From Candidatus Woesearchaeota archaeon (GTDB taxonomy: Archaea > Nanobdellota > Nanobdellia > Woesearchaeales > GW2011-AR9), in the NCBI GenBank assembly GCA_013331555.1, contig DUGB01000134.1:244-42027 (forward strand): a stretch of DNA of 41,784 bases, given 5' to 3'. The stretch's first letter is position 1. The number at the start of each line of letters is the position of its first letter. The notes under the pieces are model-generated. The model had not been told where the DNA came from. It did not search any database and saw nothing but the letters and a program-made list of their open reading frames with translations. Of this stretch, positions 16,578 through 22,909 are shown in pieces. Made by a program: the position numbers and the translations under genes.

Positions 16578-17000
16578 TTGGATCATCTGGCAATTCTGTC
16601 GAAAAAAGGCGATTGGTTAGCAAAAATTCTTTCTGGAGAAAAAACAATCGAATCTCGTTGGTATAAACATAAGAAAGGTCCATATGGAACAATTAAAGCC
16701 GGCGATACTATTTACTTCAAAGAATCAGGAGAACCAGTTACGGCAAAAGCTAGAGTTGAGAAAGCTCTTTTTTTCGCGGATTTGTATCCTGCTACAATAC
16801 AGAAAATTTTAGATGATTATGGCAAACAAATATGCCTCCAAAATTATACTCTTGAGGCGTACAAGAGGACCAATTATGTTACGCTTGTATTTCTAGTAGA
16901 TGTAAAGGCGATAGAGCCTTTTAAAATTAATAAGAAAGGCTATGGGTTGATGGCAGCGTGGATTACCGTTGATTCGATTGATAGGATACGAGTAAATTAA
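16578..17000 (+). CDS. ASCH (PUA-like) domain protein
   Basis: ILSGEKTIESRWYKHK...IKAGDTIYFKESG is an ASCH-like N-terminal pattern. The ORF has only a TTG start at 16578. Confidence 0.5.
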   Translation: MDHLAILSKKGDWLAKILSGEKTIESRWYKHKKGPYGTIKAGDTIYFKESGEPVTAKARVEKALFFADLYPATIQKILDDYGKQICLQNYTLEAYKRTNYVTLVFLVDVKAIEPFKINKKGYGLMAAWITVDSIDRIRVN

Positions 17001-17007
17001 CGATAGC

Positions 17008-17016
17008 TTTTTATAA
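17008..17016 (+). promoter_or_regulatory. TATA box for the tRNA-Met/Ile(CAU) gene
   Basis: TTTTTATAA ends 26 nt upstream of the first tRNA nucleotide (17042). Confidence 0.5.
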
Positions 17017-17041
17017 CGATTATTGTGTTTGAGAGTAAGTC

Positions 17042-17247
17042 GGCAACATAGCTTAACCTGGTTATAGCGCCACGCTCATATACGTTGAGCAATGAGGCTT
17101 TTAGCCAATGACTAACTCTCATGACTGGGTTACGTGGAGGTTTCCGGGTTCAAAAGTCCAAGTACGCTGGGCGAACGTTGTCAAGTGGTGTTTACAACAC
17201 CACGAGCAGCCTCGAAGCGTTTTGGCTTGAAAGTCCCGGTGTTGCCA
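17042..17247 (+). tRNA. tRNA with CAU anticodon (elongator Met or Ile2), apparently with two introns
   Basis: Acceptor GGCAACA/TGTTGCC plus discriminator A. D arm GCTT-AACCTGGTTA-TAGC. Anticodon stem CCACG/CGTGG, loop CT-CAT-A with CAT at 17077..17079. The stem halves are separated by ~51 nt (17081..17131) at canonical position 37/38. T stem CCGGG/CCCGG is separated by ~79 extra nt (about 17155..17233) inside the T loop. A T-run follows. The variable loop would be 6 nt, which is atypical. Confidence 0.6.
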
Positions 17248-17301
17248 CTTTTTATTATTTTCTTTGCCTAAAGGAGAATACTCAGAAACTGTGCCGAAAT
17301 A

Positions 17302-17309
17302 TTTATATA
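17302..17309 (+). promoter_or_regulatory. TATA box for the tRNA-Ser gene
   Basis: TTTATATA ends 26 nt upstream of the tRNA start (17335). Confidence 0.5.
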
Positions 17310-17334
17310 AGCAGTTTTAGGTTTTCCAGCAAAT

Positions 17335-17454
17335 GCCGCGATGGCACAACCCGGTACTGCGCAAGCCTGGAAACTTGCTTTGGGCAGGTCCCGAATGCAA
17401 GTGAGGAGAGCTTGTTCCCGTAAGGGTATCCCAGTTCAAATCTGGGTCGCGGCG
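17335..17454 (+). tRNA. tRNA-Ser(GGA) with canonical 37/38 intron (~36 nt)
   Basis: Acceptor GCCGCGA/TCGCGGC plus discriminator G. 3-bp D stem (class II). Anticodon stem CAAGC/GCTTG, loop CT-GGA-A[intron 17373..17408]A. Long variable arm TTCCCGTAAGGGTAT. T arm CCCAG-TTCAAAT-CTGGG. No encoded CCA; a T-run follows. Confidence 0.8.
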
Positions 17455-17535
17455 TTTTTATTCAAGTATAACGCCAGAAGGCTCACTTCGGGCTACAACC
17501 ATTAAATTTGATATCTTTAAAGGATTTTTAAGAAT

Positions 17536-18243
17536 CTAAATTTTTTTACTATCAAAACTTATTATATCTATTGTATCACTTTGTTTACATTTAAAATTAA
17601 CTGCCTCTTTCTTTGAAGCAAAAATTTTCAAATCATCAGGAATATTATTACTCTGCTTCTTAGTTTTGAAAGCTACTAAAGGGGTATGAACTTCAGACAA
17701 AAAATTGGATAAGAATCTTAAAATGAAATATATTTGTAATTCATATATATCAATATCATATTTTTCTCCAATATCTTTATGTCTTTCAATATCCAAAAAT
17801 AAAACTCTTCTCTTATTAGGAAATTCTATTTGTGTTTTTTTTACCAAATTAAATAAAATCTTAGCAGATTCTTCAAAACTTTCAGGTTCATAAATATTGT
17901 GATAAATGGCAATGGGTTTATCAATTAACATTTCTTTATAGTTTGTATTTTCCTCGAAAATTAGTTCATCAAAGTTTTGATATTTCTTTGTTTCTTCTTT
18001 TGCTTTAGCAACAATTTCCCACCAATAATCTCTCATTTGCCTTATTTTTTTTCTTAATTCTGGATTCCCTCCATAGAGATAGTGGCAATCAGCTGTAAGC
18101 GGAGCTGCATTATCTAACGTGTCAGGTCCATTCTCACTTTCTGGGATTATATGGTGTACTTCAACAAATACTTTATAGCAAATACAACAACGAAAATGTG
18201 ATCTTTTATTAGCCTCAAGTTTTATTCTCTCGGAAAAAGTCAT
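17536..18243 (-). CDS. HNH (His-Me finger) endonuclease domain protein with unknown C-terminal domain
   Basis: RCCICYKVFVEVHHIIPESENGPDTLDNAAPLTADCHYLYGG gives CxxC...HH...N...CH. The remaining ~150 aa have no recognised motif. Extremely AT-rich gene, convergent with tRNA-Ser. Confidence 0.65.
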   Translation of the reverse strand: MTFSERIKLEANKRSHFRCCICYKVFVEVHHIIPESENGPDTLDNAAPLTADCHYLYGGNPELRKKIRQMRDYWWEIVAKAKEETKKYQNFDELIFEENTNYKEMLIDKPIAIYHNIYEPESFEESAKILFNLVKKTQIEFPNKRRVLFLDIERHKDIGEKYDIDIYELQIYFILRFLSNFLSEVHTPLVAFKTKKQSNNIPDDLKIFASKKEAVNFKCKQSDTIDIISFDSKKI

Positions 18244-18443
18244 TAATATTATCAGAATGATTGGTTGTTTATATTTTTTGGTGTTCTTTGGGTTATTCCA
18301 GATATTTTTGTAATGGGTTGAACAGCTACATTCTGCTTACATCATAATTTTGAATTTTAGTGGATATCCTATTAAATCTCTTCTTTAAATCTGATACCGA
18401 AACTAATTTACATTTTTGATAACATCCGTATAGAAGATAAACC

Positions 18444-19430
18444 CTAGTTCTGCAAAATAAACTGCTGAAGTGAAGGAAGATACCAATAAACGTCTCCATC
18501 GGTGAAAGAAACAGTAAATACCTGCATTTCAATAAGTGCAAGAGCGTGAATCTTGACATCACTTTGCAACTCCCGTGATTGTAATTCTTTCATCTGATGA
18601 TCAAAAAGTTCTTTGATCTCCTGCCGTTTTTCTTTATTTTTTTCAATGAGTTCTTCTCCTTTCTTTTTGAGGAGTTTGATTTCATAGTTATATTTGTCGC
18701 GAAGGCTGAATGAAGAGGCGTTCATTGATTTGTCTTGAATTTCTCTGATCTTCGTATTGATCTTTTCTTCCTGCTGTTTCAATTCAGCGTATTGATTTTC
18801 AGCATGACCACGCTGAATTTCAACTAGGTCGTTCATGTCTTGTTCATGTTCTTTTTCAGCAAGAGTAAGATCTTTCTGTAATTCTTTCTGAAGAAATGTA
18901 GTGAACAGAGGAGTAATCTTCTCATCAAAATTAATAGGAGTTTGGCTTTTGAGGAAGGTTGCTTTCATCAAAGATTCAGCAGAGATGACGTTATTGTTAA
19001 GAATTAGCTGCGGTATAACCCAGCGGTATTTATGGTTAGCAGTTGTTATAATCACTTCCGGAAGGACAAAATGTCCTTTTGCTTTGATCTCTTCAATAGT
19101 ATAACGACAGGTTTTATGAAGTTCGGACAGTTTTTCATTGACATCAAGCAGGTCTCTTTTGTTTACGGGAATGCTAAATGAACCGATAGCAGTTATGTCG
19201 GCATACCGTGCGACCATACTGTCAAAAATAAAATTACCGGGCTGAAGATGTTCAATTTTTTCTTTGGCAGCAATAATTGGATCAAAAGTGCAAACTAAAT
19301 TAGAGCGATTATACCATTTCTGGTGGGTTTTGTCAAGTTTGATAGAATATATTTTATTCTTTACTTTGTACTCGAGCTTATGCTCTTCAAAGTATAGTTG
19401 TACATATAATTCGCTACGTTCTGGGTTCAT
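18444..19430 (-). CDS. hypothetical protein with central charged coiled coil, translationally coupled to the SNF2 helicase
   Basis: 328 aa. The start overlaps the SNF2 stop by 17 nt. Central segment LTLAEKEHEQDMNDLVEIQRGHAENQYAELKQQEEKINTKIREIQDK...KKKGEELIEKNKEKRQEIKELFDHQMKELQSRE. No catalytic motif recognised. Confidence 0.45.
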   Translation of the reverse strand: MNPERSELYVQLYFEEHKLEYKVKNKIYSIKLDKTHQKWYNRSNLVCTFDPIIAAKEKIEHLQPGNFIFDSMVARYADITAIGSFSIPVNKRDLLDVNEKLSELHKTCRYTIEEIKAKGHFVLPEVIITTANHKYRWVIPQLILNNNVISAESLMKATFLKSQTPINFDEKITPLFTTFLQKELQKDLTLAEKEHEQDMNDLVEIQRGHAENQYAELKQQEEKINTKIREIQDKSMNASSFSLRDKYNYEIKLLKKKGEELIEKNKEKRQEIKELFDHQMKELQSRELQSDVKIHALALIEMQVFTVSFTDGDVYWYLPSLQQFILQN

Positions 19431-21198
19431 GGATCATTCCACTAAAAATGGTTTCATCAAATTTCTTTATTTCTTCGACTTTTTCTTTTGCTTGAGATAA
19501 ATCTTGGGCAATAATATCATCATTTTTGAGATATGATTCAAAGATTGATTTTTCAATACTGCCTTTCGTGGTAAGTTCGCTGAGAATCATGTCCATCTCT
19601 CCAATAGACACGGTAAACAAATTAATTTTTTCATACAAACGATTAAGGATATAGGCCTCAATAGTGTCTTTGATGGCAATGTTATGAATTTCAACATCCT
19701 GTTTCTGGCCGATACGATGAACACGGCCGATGCGCTGTTCTAGACGCATGGGATTCCAAGGAAGATCAAAGTTGATCAGAATATGGGCAAACTGAAGGTT
19801 TCGACCTTCTGAACCAGCATCGGTGCAGATAAGAACTTGAGCATCACTCTTGAACTGTTGAATGGCTGCTTCTTTTTCTTCCGGGGTCATCACACCGTTG
19901 AAAATGACTGTTTTAAAGCCATTCATTTTTAATTCTAGATCGATTATCTTTTGTGATTGGATGAACGTGGTAAAGATGATGACTTTTTCTTTTTCATTTT
20001 TGAGAAGTTTCGTAAGATAATCTAATTTACGGTCACGAGAAATACGCTGAGCACGCAGGAGGAGGGCTTCCAGAGATGTGACTTTTTTAGGATCATCCAA
20101 TGTTTCCTTGTAGCGTTGCAAGGCATGGATTCCGGCTTGAAGTGAGCTCGTTATCTGACGAGTCAGCATGATCAAAGCGAAAGTAAGAAGTCCTTTTTGA
20201 CGATAGCGAGATGCCATGACGTGAAGTTCTTCTTCACTGAGTGATTCGAGTTCTTCTGTTTCTTCTGTTGAGATATCTTTTTCAATTTTTTTGATTTCCT
20301 CATACTGTTTGCGGACAAAGGCAATGGCTTCAGTGTAGAAATCCATTTCTTCTTTTGAATAATCCAAAAGATGGGTTTTAACGTGACGCTCGGCAAATTT
20401 AATCCCCGTATCACGCCGAAGATTGCGAATCATAATTTTAGAAAGCTTTTCTTGAAGTTCGATAGAATTCTTAACTTTCAAACCGTCTTTATCTTGAACA
20501 TATTGACTGGTGAATTTCGCTTTCGTTTCTAAAAAACCAGGGTGAAGCAAGTCGAGAAGCGCCCAGAGTTCAAAGATGTTATTCTGAAGCGGTGTAGCGG
20601 TAAGCATCAGACAACGTTCTTTTTCAATGTCTTTGACAAGTTTATAATTTAATGTAGTGCTGTTCTTGAGCTTGTGAGCTTCATCAACAACAATTAAATC
20701 CCATTTTATGCTGGTGAGAACTTTTTTGTGACGTTCTGTCTTGGCAGTGTCAATGGATGCAATAATACGATTTGTTTCTTTGTAGGTTGAAGGATCATCA
20801 GCAATGACAAAGTGTTCATTAAATTTTGAGCGTAATTCTTCCTGCCATTGAAATTTTAAAGTGGCTGGCGTGAGAATGAGAATTTTATCCGCTAATTTTC
20901 GGGCAATGTATTCTTTGATGATGATGCCTGCTTCGATTGTTTTTCCCAGTCCGACTTCATCAGCAAGAAGTGCGCGATGGGAAAAATTGTTAAGGACATG
21001 AAGAGCAGTTCTGGTCTGATGCTCCATAATCTCAATTTTATCAGCGTACGTGCTTCTGGCGATAAGCTCATTGACTGTTTCGACAGAGGCAATTTGTTTG
21101 GCTAACACGGCGAGTTTAAAAACGGTCGGTGAAGCATAGTCTTTTTCTTTGAGAGCATGCTCTAGAAAAGGGATTTTTTTGATATTGAGTGAAACCAT
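19414..21198 (-). CDS. compact SNF2/Rad54-family (RapA/HepA-like) ATPase-helicase
   Basis: Motif I LLADEVGLGKT, II VVDEAHKLKN, III LMLTATPLQNN, V CTDAGSEGRNLQ, VI LEQRIGRVHRIGQ. 594 aa with only a short N-terminal extension. Confidence 0.85.
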   Translation of the reverse strand: MVSLNIKKIPFLEHALKEKDYASPTVFKLAVLAKQIASVETVNELIARSTYADKIEIMEHQTRTALHVLNNFSHRALLADEVGLGKTIEAGIIIKEYIARKLADKILILTPATLKFQWQEELRSKFNEHFVIADDPSTYKETNRIIASIDTAKTERHKKVLTSIKWDLIVVDEAHKLKNSTTLNYKLVKDIEKERCLMLTATPLQNNIFELWALLDLLHPGFLETKAKFTSQYVQDKDGLKVKNSIELQEKLSKIMIRNLRRDTGIKFAERHVKTHLLDYSKEEMDFYTEAIAFVRKQYEEIKKIEKDISTEETEELESLSEEELHVMASRYRQKGLLTFALIMLTRQITSSLQAGIHALQRYKETLDDPKKVTSLEALLLRAQRISRDRKLDYLTKLLKNEKEKVIIFTTFIQSQKIIDLELKMNGFKTVIFNGVMTPEEKEAAIQQFKSDAQVLICTDAGSEGRNLQFAHILINFDLPWNPMRLEQRIGRVHRIGQKQDVEIHNIAIKDTIEAYILNRLYEKINLFTVSIGEMDMILSELTTKGSIEKSIFESYLKNDDIIAQDLSQAKEKVEEIKKFDETIFSGMIHEPRT

Positions 21199-21295
21199 GG
21201 AAAACCAACTGAGAAAATGAATATTACTACCTCTCTTTTTCTCTTTATATACCTTTCGGCAAAGCTATAAAAATGATGTTTTCTTTGACATTATT

Positions 21296-21445
21296 ATGGA
21301 TAATTTAGAGGGTTTAGATCCAAAGAAAATAATCAAACCTTGCTGTCAAAGCTATCTCACCACGAAAGGACGCTGTTATGATTGTACAGAGCAGTGGCAG
21401 GATGATGATTCCGATGATAATGACATAGATGGGGAAGAGGAGTGA
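21296..21445 (+). CDS. small Cys-containing protein with acidic tail (49 aa; below the ORF-track cutoff)
   Basis: Hand translation MDNLEGLDPKKIIKPCCQSYLTTKGRCYDCTEQWQDDDSDDNDIDGEEE*. Has CC-x10-CxxC. Lies 39 nt upstream of the PIN-like ORF on the same strand. Coding status is uncertain. Confidence 0.25.
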   Translation: MDNLEGLDPKKIIKPCCQSYLTTKGRCYDCTEQWQDDDSDDNDIDGEEE

Positions 21446-21484
21446 GATTTTTGAATGAGAACATTTTAATATTACCACCAGTAA

Positions 21485-22318
21485 ATGGTACTTATGTCCC
21501 CACAGAAACCAACTTCTGTTCCTTTAGAGGAGCTTGCTAAGAAATCAAAATTAGTCTTCGTAGATAATAATATTTTCTTTCAGGATAGAAATAAAGGGCG
21601 AGAAGGAGTGTATCTTAATTTGGGTGACCAGGTAAAGAAAGCTAAATCTTTTTACGACATCCGTCAGAGTGACATTGACCGCCATCTTGCTCGAATGCTT
21701 CATTTAGTTGATGTTTGTGAGCGCTATTCTCAGATTGTTACGGTTGATGAGATTTTATATGAATATGATGAATCTAGAGACTTTTTAGGACGAACATTTG
21801 ACCGTTTGAAACAAAGGCATCATGATAAACGCTATTATGGGACGGTTCAAGAACTCTTAAAAATATGTGGATTGCATCGAGATTTATATAATTTACTTCA
21901 ATTAAGAACAGCTAACCGACAGAGTGCTGAACCATTAGTGAGAGCTTTGTTACGAACGGATCTACACAAACCAAAAGATGGGCGATTTATGAAAGTTGGT
22001 AATGGTATACCAAAAGATAATGTGACCTACCAGCGCGATATCACACTTGTTGCGAATGCTATCCAAGCAGCAGTAGAGGAAGAAGGTTCTATTGCTATTC
22101 TAAGTGATGATTGTGATATTTTTAATTTGGTGAGGAACATTGGAGAAAAGTACCGAGATAATAGTCCTATAAGTCCAGAATGCAGCACCAAATTAAAAAG
22201 AAGTGTCACTGCTTATAGTACAGATGTTAATCTTTGGCATCCTGGTTTGATGATTGTTCACGTGACAGATACTGAAATGAACATGCGTCTACGATACAGA
22301 AAAAGAGAGAGAAGATAA
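21485..22318 (+). CDS. hypothetical protein, possible PIN-like nuclease fold
   Basis: Acidic residues in PIN-like contexts and order: LVFVDNNIF, TVDEILYE, RDITLVANAIQAA, ILSDDCDIF. The long helical insert between them is atypical. Basic C-terminal tail. Confidence 0.35.
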   Translation: MVLMSPQKPTSVPLEELAKKSKLVFVDNNIFFQDRNKGREGVYLNLGDQVKKAKSFYDIRQSDIDRHLARMLHLVDVCERYSQIVTVDEILYEYDESRDFLGRTFDRLKQRHHDKRYYGTVQELLKICGLHRDLYNLLQLRTANRQSAEPLVRALLRTDLHKPKDGRFMKVGNGIPKDNVTYQRDITLVANAIQAAVEEEGSIAILSDDCDIFNLVRNIGEKYRDNSPISPECSTKLKRSVTAYSTDVNLWHPGLMIVHVTDTEMNMRLRYRKRERR

Positions 22319-22909
22319 GATTTCTTGTGCTTTCTGAGGATCAATTTTCTTGATCGTACTAAAATATTTTTCTCCTAGTTGAATGCTCATTTCACAATCA
22401 GAACGGCAAGGAAAGTGTGATACCAAGCAATAATCATTCTCACGTTGAGAGAGATTAGTGTAGGGATTGGTGGGAACCAATTCTAAATTCGTTTTTCTAC
22501 TTGTAAAATTTTGTACAAAGAATTGAACACAGCAAGCGGGATAGCCTAATAATAATCCTAAGTCTTGATGGTTTTCAATGAGTTCATAGTAGTGGGCAAG
22601 AAGTACTTTCTCTTCATCTTTAGAAATGTAAACAAAAAACATTCCTGAACGAGGATCAGCGACTGAAAGGCGAAGGCCTTTGTTGGTAAACTCTGTTTCA
22701 TCAGCAAGCAGAACTTTAAAACGGGAAACTTCAATGAATAGATTCTGTTGCTGACAGAATTTTTGAATTTTAGGTAGTTCGTGCTCGTAAAATCCCTGCC
22801 TGACAACCATTTTGGCATCATGAAGAAGCAAGAGAATCTCTTGTACTTTCATTGTGGAACCAAAAAGGGGAAGAAGAGACTGAAACATAGGATTGTTGAA
22901 ATAGATCAC
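22289..22909 (-). CDS. hypothetical Cys-rich protein
   Basis: 206-aa ORF with LLLGYPACCVQFF and HFPCRSDCEMS motifs. Its 3' end overlaps the convergent ORF by 30 nt. Forms an apparent operon with 22920..23723. Confidence 0.4.
   Translation of the reverse strand: MIYFNNPMFQSLLPLFGSTMKVQEILLLLHDAKMVVRQGFYEHELPKIQKFCQQQNLFIEVSRFKVLLADETEFTNKGLRLSVADPRSGMFFVYISKDEEKVLLAHYYELIENHQDLGLLLGYPACCVQFFVQNFTSRKTNLELVPTNPYTNLSQRENDYCLVSHFPCRSDCEMSIQLGEKYFSTIKKIDPQKAQEILSSLSFSVS

Follow-up and report, generated by a model that had tools for sequence, protein, structure and literature searches.

RapA (HepA) of Escherichia coli is a Swi2/Snf2 ATPase that recycles RNA polymerase (PDB 6BOG, 8SPG and 8T0L), and its tandem-Tudor N-terminal domain (residues 1-107) both autoinhibits the ATPase and contacts RNA polymerase. 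The C-terminal parts of RapA have been named Spacer and CTD (PMC8501970), and a 2026 analysis of BREX described a C-terminus common to RapA and the type-3 BREX helicase BrxHII (PMC12839542). BrxHII combines an Snf2 core with an inactive restriction endonuclease (REase) and a beta-sheet domain with two coiled-coil helices, and its inactive REase has been proposed to act as a nucleotide sensor (PMC12839542). RapA, BrxHII and their C-terminal domains are already known; no description of a split form, or of archaeal occurrence, of RapA-type enzymes was found in the literature searched. Here we analyse a stretch of 41,784 nucleotides (nt), referred to below as the window, from a Candidatus Woesearchaeota archaeon (contig DUGB01000134.1, positions 244 to 42,027, in the 1.36-Mb, 87%-complete DPANN archaeal assembly GCA_013331555.1). 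Two overlapping genes on its minus strand, one for a compact SNF2 protein (the motor) and one for an unannotated partner, are very probably the two halves of one RapA-type Swi2/Snf2 enzyme, an identity that we understand as structural and evolutionary.

The motor gene (19414-21198, minus strand) encodes a protein of 594 amino acids (aa), a bare Swi2/Snf2 ATPase core with neither the Tudor N-terminal domain nor the C-terminal module of RapA. The Pfam models SNF2-rel_dom (1e-36) and Helicase_C (6.5e-26) cover residues 55-497, and motifs I-VI are intact (GLGKT, DEAH, TATP and QRIGRVHRIGQ). The ATPase core fills nearly the whole chain, as had been recognised in the initial annotation, which was made without database searches and described all helicase motifs with almost no accessory domains. 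The best sequence match in the PDB is E. coli RapA (1.5e-45), followed by the core of Sulfolobus SSO1653 (1.1e-36), with eukaryotic remodellers ranking lower. RapA can be aligned to SNF2 residues 48-578, and BLASTP pairs residues 52-528 with RapA 149-632 at 27% identity. The tandem Tudor domain (RapA 1-107) is absent: alignments begin at RapA 145-149 (query 48-52), and some 50 residues precede motif I. Scores against the NCBIfam models are all below their cut-offs, at 231.3 bits for RapA (NF003426 equivalog; cut-off 576 bits), 253.8 and 250 bits for DrmD (610 or 950), 232 bits for DpdE (500) and 100.2 bits for ZorD (1500). The top PADLOC matches, led by BrxHI/BrxHII and including DrmD, DpdE and HmaA as well as ZorD, align the generic ATPase core alone. 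By sequence similarity, the motor is a member of the RapA group of Snf2 ATPases and fits none of the named families.

The partner gene (18444-19430, minus strand) begins inside the end of the motor gene. The SNF2 stop codon (TAG) runs into the partner ATG, and this 17-nt overlap (19414-19430, minus strand), read directly in the sequence, puts the partner in a different reading frame. The 328-aa product gave no significant match in Pfam, NCBIfam, PADLOC, PHROGs or the PDB (phmmer and profile searches); weak matches to Cas12f and to coiled-coil proteins were rejected as compositional. In a set of 1.8 billion representatives its family makes up 38 clusters at 50% identity, with nearly all members about 330 aa long. 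Across an alignment of 30 members, H195 is the sole invariant residue and T48 is the sole position within residues 1-170 that is at least 90% conserved. The N-terminal domain contains no conserved acidic-lysine set corresponding to a PD-(D/E)xK triad, and no nuclease-type motif is conserved in the 30 members. The initial annotation had noted no recognisable catalytic motif in the protein.

The structure of the partner was modelled with AlphaFold2 (AF2) from the 30-sequence family alignment (pLDDT 92.8, pTM 0.74). The order of elements is alpha-beta-beta-alpha-beta-alpha-alpha-beta, then beta-strands, two helices (residues 172-236 and 241-285) and terminal strands. The helices, of about 60 and 45 residues, project from the beta-sheet as a hairpin of some 110 residues, so that the coiled coil foreseen in the initial annotation takes the form of a two-helix hairpin in the model. 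On this prediction, the partner starts with an alpha+beta domain of degenerate REase type and continues into a beta-sheet domain, into which the two coiled-coil helices are inserted. The near-invariant residues H195, L202, E216, E221, F241 and K257 all lie in the hairpin (residues 195-257 are encoded at approximately 18660-18848 of the window). F241 sits at the hairpin tip, where the fused relatives described below have a W-F pair. This pattern of conservation suggests that the tip may be a functional contact.

When the partner model was searched against 350,542 PDB chains with Foldseek, a single match fell below 1e-3: an N-terminally truncated E. coli RapA (8spg; E 7.9e-5, prob 1.0, 332 columns). 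The next match had an E value of 0.15. A second line of evidence comes from relatives of the motor. These are 51-72% identical to it within the Woesearchaeota clade, and those at approximately 40-43% identity include proteins near 590 aa, others near 712 aa and a set of 871-946 aa. Twelve of these long proteins, several labelled Thermoplasmatota, have a core 41-43% identical to the window SNF2 protein and a C-terminal region of about 320 aa that matches the partner in both local (Prob 96.3%, E 1.8e-9, 243 columns) and global (Prob 97.2%, E 9.8e-11) hhalign comparisons. A single sequence, P0101 (GCA_049602735.1), is collinear with the partner at E 3.7e-5 (partner 7-282, P0101 612-866). The last SNF2 residue, 594, aligns to P0101 residue 596 and partner residue 7 to residue 612, and P0101 588-606 is a coil with lowered pLDDT in the AF2 model. 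The gene split falls in an interdomain linker of about 10 residues of the fused protein; the pair is very probably a Tudor-less RapA-like translocase that is split into motor and module at this linker.

The AF2 model of P0101 (pLDDT 84.3) repeats, in its C-terminal third, the succession of secondary structure elements seen in the partner. RapA entries take the first five places in the Foldseek search with this model (E 1.6e-32 to 5e-22), and their alignments extend over 960-1001 columns, the whole chain. Chd1, CHD4, CSB, ISWI, INO80 and SSO1653 follow from E 8e-22 with about 470-730 columns, essentially the core, and SSO1653 (1z63) is found at rank 36 with 516 columns. The initial annotation had called the partner unknown, which holds for sequence families, but the fold search and the fused homologues link it to the RapA C-terminus.

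The fused gene lies in the same housekeeping neighbourhood in two Thermoplasmatota genomes, with PHO4/PhoU, an aminotransferase, a HAD hydrolase and GPP34 on one flank and peptidase S15, G3P dehydrogenase, a peptidyl-prolyl isomerase, L37e, a PUA protein and SepF on the other. SepF is found a few kb from the RapA-like gene in three loci: two from Thermoplasmatota (L050, 15339-16410; L049, 16510-16841) and the most divergent Woesearchaeota pair (L012, 6005-7078), where SepF and ZPR1 are at 1-2 kb. ZPR1 also accompanies SepF in L050, and L049 ends inside SepF. This shared proximity to SepF and ZPR1 may be a remnant of ancient archaeal synteny.

The linkage of the two genes was followed across 15 loci: the window itself, nine regions from reference genomes and five contigs of metagenome or genome origin. 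In 15/15 loci the partner homologue is directly preceded by a co-oriented SNF2 gene of 580-612 aa, and the pairwise identities of the two proteins are correlated (Spearman 0.87, 105 pairs). The coupling of the SNF2 and 328-aa genes put forward in the initial annotation is thus upheld: always adjacent and co-oriented, co-diverging, and fused in another phylum, they are supported as functionally coupled. Split pairs also occur further afield. A euryarchaeote encodes a 623-aa protein with an overlapping 331-aa ORF (open reading frame) that hhalign matches to the partner profile (82%, E 1.1e-5), and in a 5.2-Mb bacterium the gene for a 712-aa protein overlaps an ORF of 317 aa, matched across the N-terminal domain at E 2e-4.

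Two loci are unusual. In a Sericytochromatia genome (L037, 8833-10944; GCA_035284745.1), the gene for a 591-aa SNF2 protein 41% identical to that of the window precedes a 703-aa ORF that Pfam does not recognise and that has only faint collinear similarity to the coiled coil and C-terminal strands of the partner; this ORF is possibly a larger version of the accessory subunit. On a metagenome contig (L013, 785-2779), the SNF2 gene that precedes the partner was predicted in two pieces, of 161 and 465 aa, reflecting a frameshift, an assembly error or a pseudogene.

Several observations weigh against reading the pair as a RapA-type enzyme that acts as proposed below. The pair is rare: it was found in 3 of 61 relatives, in 6 of 401 genomes from the order and, at the level of the phylum, in 8 of 401, and the SNF2 protein alone is equally sparse; at approximately 2% of the order's genomes, the pair is not core in this lineage. 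Its context differs in nearly every lineage, with almost nothing else shared with the window, and the partner changes at roughly twice the rate of the motor (mean identity 30% versus 59%). Rarity, patchiness, variable context and fast evolution of one partner are traits typical of conflict genes too. On the structural side, the TM-score between the partner and RapA is low (0.26), with differences in hairpin length and domain orientations, and the RapA residues aligned to the partner are not stated in the Foldseek output. The TM-scores of the fused P0101 model against RapA, at 0.45-0.52, are also low. A search of the whole genome with the Pfam model RapA_C (PF12137) gave no match, and hhalign comparisons of the partner, fused C-terminal and merged profiles with E. 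coli RapA were non-significant (E 0.07-0.35). The top merged-profile alignment, at a non-significant E value, is in the expected register (partner 5-75, RapA 714-790). As there is no significant sequence match to the RapA C-terminus, the RapA link of the partner rests on the fold comparison together with the fused homologues. Finally, the absence of the Tudor domain and the differing archaeal RNA polymerase mean that any target has to be proposed by analogy. Taking all of this into account, a split RapA-like enzyme with the role proposed below is probably the best explanation of the data as a whole.

The surroundings of the pair offer little that recurs. Taking up to four genes on either side of the pair across the 15 loci gave 104 ORFs, among which PADLOC found no recurrent BREX, DISARM, Dpd or Zorya partner, nuclease or methylase. 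Its matches were to generic kinase and HIT models and to one helicase, a single ORF matching DrmD models. BrxC, PglX (the PglXI methyltransferase) and PglZ were absent from these 104 neighbours, DrmA/B/C and DpdA-K from the pair neighbourhoods, and ZorA and ZorB from both the annotated neighbours in the window and the 104 ORFs. By Pfam the neighbours are heterogeneous: NUDIX occurs three times, LemA, TPM, UvrC, Dus, HIT, glyoxalase and GST twice each, and others include SAM synthetase and one methyladenine glycosylase. Relatives of the partner were found neither on IMG/VR viral contigs nor in phage records, and its model had no significant fold match in BFVD.

In the window itself, the next gene on the minus strand encodes a 235-aa lone McrA-like HNH endonuclease (17536-18243). 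The initial annotation had correctly read from the sequence the three minus-strand ORFs of 594, 328 and 235 aa, the 17-nt overlap, the 200-nt gap between the partner and the HNH gene, and an HNH endonuclease fused to an unfamiliar domain of about 150 aa. The HNH motif is in residues 13-90 (Pfam HNH, PF01844; 2.4e-7, 31.2 bits against a cut-off of 21.4) and aligns with McrA (PDB 6GHC) residues 234-263; the remaining 145 or so aa have no match. The 200-nt spacer before the gene holds an A/T-rich, TATA-like element, and the gene is a separate transcription unit. No HNH homologue is present in the 14 other pair loci, 400 other genomes of the order contain weak motif-level matches only and no close homologue, and no relative was found on IMG/VR contigs. 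A single real relative, 49% identical across residues 1-210, comes from a high-GC metagenome contig of 1 kb (L048, 251-855; Ga0265297_10331304). That relative directly follows a helix-turn-helix ORF (HigA/XRE-like, antitoxin-like) and seems to carry a frameshift close to its 3' end. These features hint that the HNH gene was transferred into the AT-rich archaeon from a genome of a very different kind, and it was probably acquired recently. The HNH gene is unrelated to the pair and not a component of it. The idea of a three-gene module of SNF2, partner and HNH is not borne out, and a three-gene defence system was rejected on the absence of HNH from the 14 other loci.

Composition sets the HNH gene apart in the same way. 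The 41 genes of the window have a mean GC content of 39.0 +/- 3.9%; the SNF2 gene (38.7%, z -0.08) and the partner gene (36.2%, z -0.73) match this average, and the HNH gene (27.7%, z -2.9) is the window minimum and the only one of the three to deviate. The AT-rich islet that had been proposed for all three is therefore reduced to the HNH gene. Two intron-bearing tRNA genes do adjoin it, as had been stated: tRNA-Ser(GGA) (17334-17455, plus strand), with a 36-nt intron and found with aragorn -i, and tRNA(CAU) (17042-17247, plus strand), whose anticodon loop and T arm each carry an insertion. Both were missed by ARAGORN with default settings and by Rfam, and aragorn identified the latter, as tRNA(CAT), only once both insertions had been removed in silico. 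The suggested tRNA landing zone stands to the extent that the two tRNA genes abut the HNH gene, but not as a bounded island containing the pair: neither att-like direct repeats of the tRNA 3' ends nor an integrase was found in 16900-22500, and a genomic island was rejected for the pair, though not for the HNH gene alone. A 100-aa ORF from the mechanical ORF list (17121-17423, plus strand) was discarded as spurious; it overlaps both tRNA genes, has 47.9% GC and a third-codon-position GC (GC3) z of +3.6, and is almost certainly not a gene. On the other side of the pair, a 277-aa ORF (21485-22318, plus strand) is divergent from the SNF2 gene and has no Pfam or PHROG match; it has no counterpart beside the pair in the other loci.

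As to function, both proteins would be translated from one mRNA and would assemble as a heterodimer, rebuilding the RapA architecture minus the Tudor domain. The 594-aa motor would pull on duplex DNA by ATP-driven translocation, with the dead-REase and coiled-coil subunit docking the enzyme on, or sensing, a DNA-bound protein complex. By analogy with RapA, the most likely target would be a stalled or post-termination RNA polymerase, or another roadblock, that is dislodged. We propose this RNA polymerase or roadblock-removal role tentatively. A bolder version, which we regard as doubtful, is that archaea have their own counterpart of RapA in the pair and the fused Thermoplasmatota proteins, which would clear stalled or post-termination archaeal RNA polymerase, or R-loops, from DNA. 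Target recognition would then fall to a separate, fast-evolving Spacer/CTD subunit rather than to a Tudor domain.

Two alternatives concern what the pair is. Fused single-chain homologues exist and the overlap sets the partner in another frame, so one could imagine a single polypeptide made by programmed ribosomal frameshifting within the 17 nt, or a split that is merely a sequencing artefact or pseudogene. Yet the split is kept in 15 independent assemblies, each partner having its own ATG, and the junctions vary, from overlaps of 4, 8, 17, 19 or 20 nt between called genes to a gap in two genomes (48 nt in one, 240 nt in the other). The data are explained without a shared slippery site, and because the junction differs between loci, including gaps as well as overlaps, we favour two products and reject a programmed frameshift; this whole alternative is highly improbable. 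The pair might instead be a translocase that serves recombination or repair, as archaeal Rad54 (SSO1653) does, and remodels DNA or RadA filaments in place of transcription complexes. The SSO1653 catalytic domain is the second PDB sequence match of the motor, SsoRad54 stimulates RadA strand exchange (PMC2677860), and repair genes lie near some pairs (UvrA and UvrC in L001, together with the UvrC, NUDIX and methyladenine glycosylase genes counted above). These neighbours are inconsistent, however, occurring in at most 3/15 loci; the accessory module is the C-terminus specific to RapA and BrxHII and no feature of SSO1653, and the fused model aligns end-to-end with RapA only. A Rad54-like identity is accordingly quite unlikely.

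A role in defence against viruses or plasmids deserves closer attention, since it had been raised, as speculation, in the initial annotation. Here the pair, with or without HNH, would use the inactive-REase subunit to sense foreign nucleic acid and leave execution to a nuclease whose gene lies close by or elsewhere in the genome. The defence helicases at the head of the motor's PADLOC matches, the nucleotide sensing proposed for the inactive REase of BrxHII (PMC12839542), the patchy distribution in varying contexts, the faster divergence of the partner, the AT-rich HNH gene and tRNA genes beside the pair in the window, and toxin-antitoxin genes within 5 kb in one locus (L038) could all be read in this way. 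Against this, the PADLOC and NCBIfam matches cover the generic ATPase core at 100-254 bits where cut-offs are 500-1500, HNH accompanies the pair in 1/15 loci, and the neighbour matches to defence systems come from single ORFs or generic kinase and HIT models. The pair also has normal GC content and no relatives on viral contigs or in phage records, and its fused orthologues are in conserved housekeeping synteny. With no recurrent defence gene among the 104 neighbours, the suggested defence link was not substantiated, and we consider this explanation unlikely. Given the housekeeping context of the fused form and the lack of defence partners, removal of RNA polymerase or other roadblocks is favoured over defence. 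The null hypothesis of the initial annotation, a non-defence role of the SNF2 pair on nucleic acids, is closer to the evidence: the partner corresponds to the C-terminal module of RapA, a known housekeeping enzyme, and the fused form keeps a core-gene synteny in two Thermoplasmatota genomes, largely what that annotation had named as counting against its own suggestion, although the pair itself is rare and not core.

These results assign a fold and an evolutionary origin to an unannotated family that lacks a Pfam or NCBIfam model and is always found beside a compact SNF2 gene, and they place RapA-type enzymes, in split and fused forms, in archaea (DPANN, Euryarchaeota and Thermoplasmatota). They also remove a false lead, as SNF2, coiled-coil and HNH genes next to tRNA genes resemble a new defence system but are none here. 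The natural split means that the motor and the Spacer/CTD module could be expressed separately. If the archaeal RapA counterpart proposed above were real, no Snf2 enzyme that recycles polymerase would have preceded it in archaea, and its naturally divided form would help in dissecting what the C-terminal module of RapA does.

The pair resembles several known systems in part. DISARM DrmD, Dpd DpdE and Zorya ZorD have a RapA-group or Snf2 core in common with the motor, but the motor scores far under their cut-offs and their obligatory partner genes are absent from the neighbourhoods. Sulfolobus SSO1653 (SsoRad54, PDB 1Z63), compared via its 500-aa catalytic-domain chain, likewise has an archaeal Snf2 ATPase core, and differs in aligning with the fused model over that core alone (516 columns, against 960-1001 for RapA). 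In BrxHII, the succession of Snf2 core, inactive REase and coiled-coil beta-sheet domain is the module order of motor plus partner. Unlike BrxHII, which has these domains and a Tudor domain in a single chain, the window pair is split in two genes, lacks a Tudor domain and belongs to no BREX locus, and the partner matches no BrxH model. The single-chain SNF2 proteins of Thermoplasmatota carry motor and partner in one chain with a linker of about 10 residues; they are themselves unannotated, and differ from the pair in being fused, in a 30-60-aa N-terminal extension and in their conserved housekeeping synteny. RapA differs from the window enzyme, which is made of two polypeptides without the tandem Tudor domain, has a longer hairpin (about 110 residues) and resides in an archaeal host whose RNA polymerase is unlike the bacterial one. 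RapA and the pair share the same ATPase core and, on the evidence of the fold though not of sequence, probably the same C-terminal module in the same order after the motor.

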